Virus record (IMG/VR): IMGVR_UViG_3300010201_000017
Source: a virus
Taxonomy: Duplodnaviria; Heunggongvirae; Uroviricota; Caudoviricetes
Length of the DNA stretch: 64,000 nucleotides
Reading direction: 5' to 3' (one strand)
The position numbers and the translations under genes were made by a program. The notes under the pieces are model-generated. The model was not told the DNA's origin, did no database searches, and was given only the letters and a program-made list of their open reading frames with translations. This document shows, one piece after another, positions 46,913 to 48,600 of the stretch. Positions within the stretch are counted from its first letter, which is position 1. Each line of letters opens with the position of its first letter.

Positions 46913-47105
46913 TATGACGTCTGCGAACACGAAGGCTCCTGAACGCCACCTTGACCGTGAGGACATTGCGGTCTGGCCAAACGGCACTTGGGCTACACTC
47001 AACGATGTCTGGAACGGCGAATTCGACTTCATGTCCGACGACTATGAAGTTGTCTCACACGATAACTACGAGCGCCTGAGACATCTTGGGATTGGTCTCG
47101 AATAG
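46913..47105 (+). CDS. small hypothetical protein (63 aa)
   Basis: ORF 46851..47105 with an internal ATG at 46913; weak support. Confidence 0.3.
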
Positions 47106-48600
47106 GGGACAACCCCTAAAGCGGGATCGGCCGCAAATCTCAAGGCATGTCTGCACCACGCAGACGAGACCACCAGATCAGAGGCACCCAGATGACGACG
47201 TGAAATCGATCCGGATGCCGAGTATGAGAGGCTATCCGTCATCCGAGGTTGAACCTCGTCTGACTTACGGCTTTGAGAACTGCCTAAGCAGCTCTCGCTA
47301 CCGCGTTTCCAGGACAACGCTCGAGCCAATGCTCCACGTTAGCGTCCCCGGGCGGCATAGCCCGCCCGTGCGCCACGAGAGCGCGGTTCAAAATGTTGAT
47401 TGCGGCGTTGACATCACGGTCGAGGACAGTTCCGCAGTCGCAGCGATGCACACGCTCTGCCAATGTCTTCTCGACCCGGGTCCCGCAGGACGAGCAGTCC
47501 TGCGACGTGCCACGAGGATCAACCTTCACCACCACCCCACCGGCTCTCTCAGCCTTGTAGGTCAGCAACTGGATCAGGCGTGCAGGCGATGCGTCCAGCA
47601 TCGCCCTGTTCAGTCCCGCCTTCTGGCGGACATTCTTTCCCGACTCGTCAGCGCTTCCGCGTGCCGAGCGGGTCATGTTCTTGGTCTTCAGCTTCTCAAC
47701 GCCGATCAGAGCGTATCGACGCGCAAGCTCTGCGGAGACCTGGTGGAGGTGGTTGGACCTGACGTTGGCGATGCTCCGCTGGATCTTCGCCAGCCGCTCC
47801 CTGACCTTCCTGCGCCGCCTGGAGGCGCGTTTGCAGCGGGCCAACGATCGAGAGAGCTTCCGAAGCTTTTTCCGCTGCCTATCGAACGACCTGACATTCT
47901 CGAACATCTCACCGTCTGAGGTGGTTGCCAGATGCGCCACCCCAACGTCGATGCCGACCACGGTCTCCGGCCGGGGATGTTCGGCCGAGATCGGAGTGTC
48001 GGCCGCCATGGTAATCCACCAATGGTGCGCAAACTTGGTGAAGGTGCAGCTCTTGATCGACGCTCCTTCTGGAAGTGGCCGATGCAGGTTCAGCCGGACC
48101 GCACCGGAGATCGGCGCAAACAGCAACCGATCCCGCTTGAGTCGGATGCCGCTCCATTCGACAAAACCGAAGCTTCTCCATCTGCTCATCGGCTTGAAGC
48201 GAGGGAAGCCCGCTTTCGTGCCGCGCTTTACGCGGCCGAAGAAACCCGTCATCGCATCATCGACACGAGCGATGGACCAGCGTGAGAGCGCCACTGGCAT
48301 GGCCCGATAGCTCTCATCTGCGGCCCTGATCTTTGTCAGCGACTTATTCTGGTCGATCTTCGAGATCGAGACCTTGGCCTTTCGCCAAGCCTCGATCCGC
48401 TCCTGCAGGGCAGCATTGTAGAGCTGACGCTGCGCTTCAAGGATTCGATCCAAAGCACGATACTGCGCCCGGGTCGGCCTGAGTTTATAGCGGTAGGTCA
48501 GCAGCATCGACAGGATGTCGTTCCTGAACGTTCCTGAACGAAGAAACTCCGAAACCTTTCGAACGTCAACCTCAGATGACTAAAGTAGTCGTTTCAACCT
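47100..48600 (-). mobile_element. IS200/IS605-family TnpB-only (IS1341-like) element; the approximately 180 nt 3' of tnpB (about 47100-47283, minus strand) is the expected omegaRNA/right-end region
   Basis: tnpB without tnpA. A tandem 10-bp repeat GTTCCTGAAC x2 lies just upstream of the tnpB start (48520-48539). Subterminal hairpins occur at 47105-47116 and around 47225-47260. The boundaries are approximate. Confidence 0.5.
47284..48507 (-). CDS. tnpB: RNA-guided endonuclease TnpB (IS605 OrfB family transposase accessory protein)
   Basis: MLLTYRYKLRPTRAQ N-terminus, RuvC-like GIDVG…, a zinc finger CSSCG…CDCG, and the C-terminal DRDVNAAINI. Confidence 0.85.
   Translation of the reverse strand: MLLTYRYKLRPTRAQYRALDRILEAQRQLYNAALQERIEAWRKAKVSISKIDQNKSLTKIRAADESYRAMPVALSRWSIARVDDAMTGFFGRVKRGTKAGFPRFKPMSRWRSFGFVEWSGIRLKRDRLLFAPISGAVRLNLHRPLPEGASIKSCTFTKFAHHWWITMAADTPISAEHPRPETVVGIDVGVAHLATTSDGEMFENVRSFDRQRKKLRKLSRSLARCKRASRRRRKVRERLAKIQRSIANVRSNHLHQVSAELARRYALIGVEKLKTKNMTRSARGSADESGKNVRQKAGLNRAMLDASPARLIQLLTYKAERAGGVVVKVDPRGTSQDCSSCGTRVEKTLAERVHRCDCGTVLDRDVNAAINILNRALVAHGRAMPPGDANVEHWLERCPGNAVARAA

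Follow-up and report, generated by a model that had tools for sequence, protein, structure and literature searches.

What moves a tnpB gene that has no transposase gene beside it, and what would its guide RNA recognize? We examined this question at a locus in a 64,000-nt stretch of DNA from a Caudoviricetes virus record (IMG/VR IMGVR_UViG_3300010201_000017; hereafter the window), where an initial annotation had proposed a tnpB-only element of the IS605 family (IS1341 type) with a candidate omegaRNA and guide region downstream of the gene. The tnpB-only description holds, as tnpB is the sole gene between the ends and no transposase gene was found inside the element or within ~3 kb on each side of it, the region covered in looking for a Y1 tnpA. 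The family assignment fails, as this element and about 25 relatives carry inverted repeats of 22–25 bp and exact 8-bp duplications, with ends of the ISL3 type. From sequence comparison, the locus is probably a non-autonomous ISL3-type element whose sole cargo is an OMEGA module, comprising an active-looking TnpB and its predicted omegaRNA.

To place the boundaries, the window locus was aligned with copies that are 70–84% identical to it, some of them from metagenomes and others from two Bosea plasmids. Similarity to these relatives begins and stops exactly at 47230 and 48616: past the tnpB stop codon it runs for 54–58 nt and then ends abruptly after ...CGGATAGCC, and on the other side its limit is GGCTATCCG..., 80–110 nt upstream of the ATG. 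The same positions carry 23-bp terminal inverted repeats (GGCTATCCG...GAGGTTGA), with the left-end repeat GGCTATCCGATATTCGAGGTTGA at 48594..48616 on the minus strand and the right-end repeat, GGCTATCCGTCATCCGAGGTTGA in plus-strand reading, at 47230..47252; the two are identical at 20/23 positions, and taken as 24-nt segments (47230–47253 and 48593–48616) they are 88% complementary. This pattern occurs exactly twice in the window, against 0.01 occurrences expected by chance. Directly outside the repeats lies an exactly duplicated octamer, the target-site duplication (TCTCATAC in minus-strand reading), with its left copy at 48617..48624 and its right copy at 47222..47229; the unoccupied site would read ...GCAGCCGCCGT-TCTCATAC-TCGGCATCC..., with a single octamer. 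The octamer and the inverted repeats at both ends therefore define a whole mobile element of 1387 bp on the minus strand (47230..48616).

Neither the inverted repeat nor the direct repeat figured in the initial annotation, which had described a flank of about 180 nt downstream of the gene; the first 54 nt of this belong to the element, up to the right end at 47230, but 47106–47229 is host intergenic DNA. The tandem repeat that it had placed upstream of tnpB exists, as two copies of the 10-nt CGTTCCTGAA at 48519..48538; it does not flank the element but lies inside, in the tnpB leader between the left end and the ATG, where relatives keep GGAAC-N5/6-GGAAC. Also inside the left end is a second, partial copy of the inverted repeat (GTCATCTGAGGTTGA; 48566..48580, minus strand), which stems from an insertion of ~28 nt that has no counterpart in relatives. 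A simple sigma-70 scan of the element found no promoter.

The element ends are of the ISL3 type. Inverted repeats in this family measure 15–39 bp, a range that includes the 23-bp repeats of the window element. The published inverted repeats of CLJ-ISL3 are GGGTATCCGGAATTTCTGGTTGAT, and 8 bp is the classical length of the ISL3 duplication (PMC7643977). The window repeat GGCTATCCGTCATCCGAGGTTGA has in common with CLJ-ISL3 the blocks GG-TATCCG and GGTTGA at the same spacing and is identical to the CLJ-ISL3 left inverted repeat at 16–18 of 24 positions, and the left-end repeat likewise resembles the CLJ-ISL3 repeats. One tnpB subfamily (L030) carries a repeat, GGCTATTCGGATTATCGTGTGGAA, that is 23/24 identical to the repeat of an Enterococcus faecium plasmid element with an annotated ISL3 transposase, the resistance gene emtA and a duplication, AAATATTT. 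A pattern scan of IMG/VR also recovered a complete ISL3 element of 2283 bp (L110, 3748–6030; repeat GGCTATCCGGCATCCGAGGTTGA, duplication AAAATTTG), whose 467-aa open reading frame (ORF) matches the Pfam families DDE_Tnp_ISL3 (174 bits) and Zn_ribbon_ISL3 and whose repeat is identical at 23/23 positions to the right end of two tnpB elements (the Bosea copy L017, and L034) and at 21/23 to that of the window.

An ISL3 transposase was sought with tblastn and was found neither in the 64-kb window nor in ~100 related tnpB loci and their flanks, and these elements are therefore passengers that would rely on a transposase encoded elsewhere. The window element is thus a non-autonomous ISL3 derivative and not an ISL3 insertion sequence proper, and its ends, shared with L110, suggest that it would be mobilized by an ISL3 transposase. 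A match to the inverted repeat on a Komagataeibacter plasmid was set aside, with no transposase nearby.

Several further observations concern ISL3-type repeats elsewhere. The E. faecium element is 3.1 kb long (L106:2106–5225, NZ_CP040905.1), carries emtA for avilamycin resistance as its passenger, and is inserted in the 5′ part of an IS256-like transposase gene, the remnant of which is annotated as a 40-aa ‘transposase’; in L110, part of a C-5 cytosine DNA methylase gene (252 aa; PF00145, N-terminal half only; 5138–5896) lies between the transposase gene and the right repeat. Near-perfect 24–28-nt matches to the ISL3-type repeat GGGTATTCGGATTATCGTGTGGAA occur at L103:3001–3028, at L105:2501–2524 and in ~25 other Firmicutes plasmids without an annotated transposase alongside, and these may be solo ends or unannotated ISL3 derivatives; matches to the L030-type repeat in B. 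thuringiensis and Staphylococcus are unannotated. More distant tnpB genes (25–35% identity) with an ISL3-like repeat, GGCTATCCGCAATCTGAGGTTGA, are present on five IMG/VR phage contigs (L109, L112, L114, L116 and L119), with an 8-bp duplication, GATTTGAT, around the element in L116 and L119, and the association of ISL3-type ends with tnpB is therefore not confined to one TnpB clade or to cellular genomes. A 168-bp miniature on another phage contig (L113:84–251) consists only of two ISL3-type repeats (GGCTATCCGCAATCTGAGGTTGA and GGATATCCGCAATTAGAGGTTGA) and occupies the site where the sister contigs L109, L112 and L114 bear the full tnpB element; it looks like an internal-deletion derivative resembling a miniature inverted-repeat transposable element.

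The anatomy of the window element recurs widely. We searched related loci de novo, requiring an inverted repeat between both tnpB flanks and an identical octamer outside it, and found the same arrangement in the window and in 23 independent relatives of 33–84% protein identity. Every match has inverted repeats of 22–25 bp that start with GG, an exact 8-bp duplication of unrelated sequence and a length of 1220–1390 bp, and the matches extend to relatives of only 33–47% identity from metagenome-assembled genomes of Dadabacteria and Thermodesulfobacteriota, in which the repeats have quite different sequences (GGGAATTATGTA..., GGGATTTATATAC...). At least five copies occupy different sites on a single 775-kb contig (L022, L023, L024, L027 and L034). 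In one case the left flank of a copy equals the right flank on another contig of the same sample (GATAAATC), and some ‘missing’ duplications are therefore assembly joins across a repeated element. Most homologue clusters occur on one contig only. A scan of the genome collection with the TnpB protein returned only relatives of 27–48% identity, which later served to show the generality of the repeats and the duplication. No neighbour gene of tnpB recurs across ~100 related loci, and a ~340-aa gene downstream of the Bosea and L020 copies was rejected as conserved context, as no neighbour protein recurs across independent loci.

The only long ORF between 47100 and 48600 is tnpB itself, a minus-strand gene (48507 to 47284) for a protein of 407 aa. 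The protein matches the Pfam domains HTH_OrfB_IS605 (PF12323), OrfB_IS605 (PF01385) and Cas12f1-like_TNB (PF07282), and the NCBIfam model guided_TnpB scores 275 bits over residues 5–375 against a cut-off of 100, whereas the IS200_TnpB model (189 vs a cut-off of 425) and the IS607-specific model (149 vs 350) both fall far below. Its RuvC residues D187, E271 and D365 align with D191, E278 and D361 of ISDra2 TnpB (8BF8/8EXA), and together with the zinc-finger cysteines C338, C341, C356 and C358 they are invariant in an alignment of 40 homologues. A degenerate RuvC triad, which had been named beforehand as the mark of a decayed copy, was looked for and not seen: as judged from its sequence, the gene is full length with its catalytic residues intact. 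RNA-guided, TAM-dependent DNA cleavage is the function predicted for this TnpB (TAM, target-adjacent motif), with an asymmetric G beside the insertions, described below, as the sole pointer to the TAM.

At its 3′ end the gene overlaps a conserved structured RNA. The nucleotide sequences of 16 close relatives are very highly conserved over a stretch that opens ~105 nt ahead of the stop codon and closes at the right end, where conservation collapses, and synonymous-codon identity, at 0.5–0.65 over most of the gene, reaches 0.88 in codons 381–400. An RNAalifold consensus of this region contains helices with compensatory changes. We built a covariance model from the conserved-region alignment, with the right-end hairpin added by hand, and it describes a candidate omegaRNA scaffold of ~160 nt with seven helices at 47230..47390 on the minus strand (151.9 bits, the sole match in the window); the scaffold shares its first 107 nt with the 3′ part of tnpB and extends from there to the right end of the element. 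All 48 loci that the model matches have the match on the coding strand at the tnpB 3′ end, and the window scaffold on its own folds with z = −4.7. Paired cells make up 91.6%, compared with 63.7% for shuffles and 34–46% for slid partners; the alignment was fitted to the structure of the model, which inflates the pairing and counts against taking this figure at face value, although the controls are still far lower. Changes on both sides are found in 45 of 47 base pairs, with a covariation score of 0.51 against 0.14 for shuffles and 0.06–0.08 for slid partners. Pairing stands at 93–99% in helices 1 to 6 and at 68% in helix 7, the terminal hairpin; the lower value reflects the geometry of this hairpin, which varies from one subfamily to another.

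That last hairpin (GUCA-GA-CGAGG-UUCAA-CCUCG-GA-UGAC; 47238..47264, minus strand; z = −5.2) corresponds to one recorded initially at about 47225–47260, and its 3′ arm is also the inner part of the right-end inverted repeat. It is kept in subfamilies with entirely different sequences (L017, L030, L028 and L095; z from −3.3 to −6.5) and is present at the right end only, the left end having no hairpin (z = +0.8). The proposal of an RNA in this region thus stands in the form of a conserved, covarying structure at the right end, but the interval given for it, 47100–47300, was too wide outside the element and too short inside it. Searching Rfam over 46500–49000 (E up to 10) gave chance matches only and no family, and a 14-nt complementarity between the right-end hairpin and tnpB codons ~328–332 is not kept in relatives and was treated as chance. 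By its features in the sequence, the structured RNA has the layout of an omegaRNA, a scaffold followed by a guide. The predicted guide, UCUCAUACUCGGCAUCCGGA (47229 to 47210, minus strand, at an assumed guide length of 16–20 nt), follows directly on the conserved scaffold and has no second occurrence in the window; the right copy of the duplication makes up its first 8 nt. Conservation collapses at this position in all relatives, and the sequence differs at every site, as would suit a guide.

Because the guide starts with the duplicated octamer, its target would be the unoccupied site, and a TAM would be expected immediately ahead of the left copy of the duplication. This places the putative TAM at 48625..48628 (minus-strand sequence CCGT, its G at position −2 relative to the duplication), and the predicted target next to it is TCTCATACTCGGCATCCGGA. 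A G is present at −1 upstream of the duplication in 13/13 distant relatives (p = 1e-8) and at −2 in 11/12 members of the close subfamily of the window (p = 3e-5), and C at −1 was found at 0/25 sites. No mirror-image signal exists on the right side of the duplication, which speaks against a symmetric preference on the part of the transposase. The duplicated octamer has an AT-rich core, as is common for DDE insertions. Together, these 25 sites suggest that the G found only on the left side, 1–2 nt ahead of the duplication, is a very short TAM.

We propose the following model. An ISL3-family DDE transposase encoded elsewhere would bind the inverted repeats, move the element in trans and create the 8-bp duplication. 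A tnpB read-through transcript would then cross the right end and be processed to an omegaRNA whose 3′ guide comes from the first 16–20 nt outside the element, made up of the duplicated 8 bp and the bases after them. TnpB–omegaRNA would recognize the unoccupied version of its own insertion site, as a target after a short G-containing TAM. At the occupied site the target is preceded by the element's terminal ...AGCC, and there the same sequence would not be recognized, which would prevent self-cutting. Cutting of empty alleles on a sister chromosome, on other replicon copies or in incoming DNA would lead to homologous recombination that copies the element in. Such a homing or gene-drive role has been shown for the TnpB proteins of IS605 and IS607. 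There is also a precedent for the arrangement in trans, as the text of a 2023 survey describes solo TnpBs inside DDE-type inverted ends and reads them as mobilized in trans (PMC10691335).

Several points weigh against this model. The omegaRNA, its processing and its guide are all inferred from sequence. The candidate TAM consists of one informative base, could instead be a transposase preference, and is much shorter than the TnpB TAMs known to us. On the side of the transposase, the absence of an ISL3 transposase from the window itself is adverse, and no partner was found in this organism; L110 is the only partner with identical repeats that was found and lies on an unrelated contig of the viral collection; and tblastn with the L110 transposase against known plasmids returned no close relative (30–36% identity for the closest) and identified no Hyphomicrobiales partner. 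Among related loci whose inverted repeats are clear, about one in two has no matching 8-bp flanks. We recovered no empty site for the window locus: exact look-ups of P0001 and P0002 found no record, and a look-up of the adjacent small ORF gave the same organism and no unoccupied allele. Finally, ISL3 elements form circles and are presumed to move by copy-out-paste-in (bioRxiv 10.1101/2023.06.07.543989), which leaves no empty donor site, and the benefit of homing is therefore less obvious than for IS605. The benefit of restoring the donor, which is known for IS605, may therefore not apply here, which would leave a gene-drive role on other replicon copies.

Two other explanations bear on what the element is. 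A canonical IS200/IS605 (IS1341-type) tnpB-only element would depend on a Y1 TnpA in trans for its movement as single-stranded DNA, with the TnpA target site at the left end as TAM, and the Pfam and NCBIfam domain names, which point to IS605 OrfB, favour it, as does a solo tnpB with RNA at its right end. IS200/IS605 elements, however, have no terminal inverted repeats and no target duplication and insert next to a fixed 4–5-nt motif (PMC4810608), and neither they nor IS607 elements carry inverted repeats or duplications (PMC4810608, PMC13565253). With both features present here, the assignment fails on two defining counts. In addition, the ends are inverted repeats of each other and not same-strand subterminal hairpins, exact 8-bp duplications of unrelated sequence are seen at >20 sites, no fixed motif adjoins the left end, which also lacks a hairpin, and the protein scores 189 on the NCBIfam IS200_TnpB model, whose cut-off is 425; we regard this origin as extremely unlikely. 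It is also unlikely, if somewhat less so, that the TnpB is a domesticated and immobile protein with a host function, such as TldR-like RNA-guided repression, and that the inverted repeats are relics. TldRs are nuclease-dead, whereas here the RuvC triad is intact and invariant, and the duplications are perfect, the inverted repeats well kept, the sequence after the scaffold different at every site and the neighbouring genes not conserved. Domestication would agree with the presence of one tnpB copy in the window, with the restriction of most homologue clusters to one contig and with the 89% of TnpB clusters that are immobile according to the text of the 2023 survey (PMC10691335); it agrees poorly with at least five copies at different sites on one contig and with a contig of the same organism's other assembly that breaks inside tnpB.

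The remaining two concern what the RNA and the nuclease do. The conserved 3′ structure might reflect a transposase-binding sequence acting at the DNA level combined with constraint on the C-terminal tail of TnpB, since its last 23 nt are the inverted repeat itself, subterminal repeats are present at ISL3 ends and the tail is conserved. Such a sequence would be bound at both ends, whereas the hairpin partner of the repeat exists at the right end only, and the constraint reaches ~110 nt into the gene at synonymous positions, with six helices upstream of the inverted repeat 93–99% paired and many double changes among them. We consider this explanation improbable, to the same degree as domestication. 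That TnpB–omegaRNA instead serves the ISL3 transposase directly, in choosing or preparing sites or in resolving intermediates, with the G reflecting a joint step, is very improbable. A G at essentially every insertion is a stronger signal than expected if homing only aided survival after random insertion, which speaks for a direct role; yet the guide is acquired only after insertion and cannot direct that same insertion, no co-encoded transposase or adaptor was seen in ~100 loci, and we know of no precedent for such service outside Tn7-like CRISPR-associated transposons, which counts against it. A non-autonomous ISL3-type element carrying an OMEGA module is therefore the reading that we retain.

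The element was inserted in an intergenic region between two convergent genes, in agreement with its initial placement between a small ORF and a surface-protein gene. The small ORF (46851/46914–47105) has no Pfam match, and the other gene (48659–50320, with its stop codon 34 nt from the element) encodes a He_PIG (putative Ig) protein of 553 aa whose C-terminal half is rich in glycine. A hairpin noted at 47105–47116 in the downstream flank of tnpB is located at the small-ORF stop codon, >110 nt outside, and is unrelated to it; in full (AGGGG-ACAA-CCCCT, 47104–47118) it overlaps that stop codon and is not followed by a T run. The GC-richer patch described around the element is weak: GC content is 0.596 in the element against a window mean of 0.551 (95th percentile), but 0.592 in the 1 kb to its left. 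We found no CRISPR repeat array at 47050–48700, the element being closed by its inverted repeats 54 nt after the stop codon, and no second tnpB copy in the window. A contig from another assembly of the same organism (L107, corresponding to window positions 43914–47486; JGI 3300000497, 233.7-kb contig) is 100% identical and ends inside tnpB at 47486, a break of the type caused by repeated elements, which hints at further copies of the element in the genome. Farther away, and unrelated to the element, an upstream operon (44363–46788) encodes a YqiJ/NfeD-like membrane protein of 203 aa together with a flotillin/SPFH protein of 590 aa that has a long coiled region rich in Ala and Glu. ARAGORN places a tRNA-Ile (51241–51316), its anticodon the unusual AAT, beside the lowest-GC stretch of the region (0.44; 51000–51300), and together these features, 2.6 kb from the element, may mark an integration hotspot or an island border.

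The biology of TnpB and omegaRNA has been worked out for IS605 and IS607, which leave no scar on excision and in which one motif serves both for insertion and as the TAM. In a 2026 review (PMC13565253), the rare associations of TnpB with DDE transposons are treated as unexplained. The present family could serve as a small and well-defined test case, with elements of 1.2–1.4 kb, sharp ends, an identified partner transposase family, a candidate minimal TAM and a guide that necessarily begins with the target duplication, and it could be used for testing whether RNA-guided homing helps elements that move by copy-out-paste-in. A further possible yield is a compact nuclease subject to few sequence constraints, and the lesson for annotation is that ‘tnpB alone’ does not imply IS200/IS605. 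More tentatively, and with less confidence than in its rejection, we speculate that a large and widespread TnpB lineage, found in Alphaproteobacteria, in metagenome-assembled genomes of Dadabacteria and Thermodesulfobacteriota and on phage contigs, may have switched from IS605/IS607 to ISL3-family DDE transposons, almost all of its members being solo passengers that parasitize ISL3 transposases, with one terminal repeat recruited as the last omegaRNA stem and a single-G TAM that would be the most relaxed known. If true, such a switch would show RNA-guided homing in the service of transposons whose insertion duplicates the target and which probably at no time leave the donor site empty.

Among known systems, the TnpB–omegaRNA of ISDra2 and other IS200/IS605 elements (8EXA, 8BF8, 8H1J) aligns over its full length with the window protein (E = 4e-37), with the same domain order and D-E-D triad, and the two have in common an RNA scaffold that starts within the last part of tnpB and extends to the right boundary, beyond which flanking DNA supplies the guide. 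ISDra2 differs in having asymmetric hairpin ends and no duplication, whereas the window element has inverted repeats and an 8-bp duplication; no Y1 TnpA logic ties the TAM to the insertion site here, protein identity is ~30% as judged by eye from the alignment, and the window TnpB falls below the NCBIfam IS200_TnpB cut-off. Over the RuvC/TNB half the best-scoring solved relative is Cas12n (type V-N, 9J09; E = 2.8e-39; PMC12216341), which has in common with it the insertion SA(R/K)G...GKNV(R/A)QK(A/S)GLNR; unlike Cas12n, which has 540 aa, the window protein has 407 aa and an N-terminal half that aligns better with ISDra2 TnpB, and its locus contains no CRISPR array or cas genes. Fanzor proteins in eukaryotic DDE transposons are also TnpB relatives in elements with inverted repeats and duplications, with a guide beyond the terminal repeat (PMC13565253); the window TnpB differs in being prokaryotic and compact, without introns or a nuclear localization signal, and in the transposase superfamily involved.

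The closest parallels are found with DDE-type elements. ISL3 insertion sequences (CLJ-ISL3/ISPpu12-like elements, L106 and L110) resemble the window element in their 23–24-bp repeats with the blocks GG(C/G)TAT(C/T)CGG...GGTTGA, in their 8-bp duplication with an AT-rich core and in a subterminal partial repeat; the window element differs in lacking a DDE_Tnp_ISL3 transposase, in carrying tnpB and a candidate omegaRNA as cargo, and in that one inverted repeat doubles as part of a predicted RNA hairpin. That TnpB occurs in DDE-type elements is already known: six TnpB branches linked to DDE transposases (DDE-1 to DDE-6), all with inverted terminal repeats, are described in the text of the 2023 survey, which names only IS630 among the DDE families (Altae-Tran et al. 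2023, PMC10691335), and the 2026 review lists links to ISL2, IS630 and IS1031 and does not name ISL3 (PMC13565253). In our literature search, which took in the text of the survey and the titles and abstracts of papers mentioning both TnpB and ISL3, we found none that links the two and no description of an ISL3-type TnpB family. According to the survey text, the DDE-1 to DDE-6 branches share with the window element symmetrical inverted terminal repeats and a tnpB 3′ end within 250 bp of an end, and they include solo TnpBs inside ends matching those of transposase-bearing elements, implying mobilization in trans. Compared with these branches, as that text presents them, the present family comes with a defined partner family, a duplication of set length (8 bp), an RNA structure and a candidate TAM.

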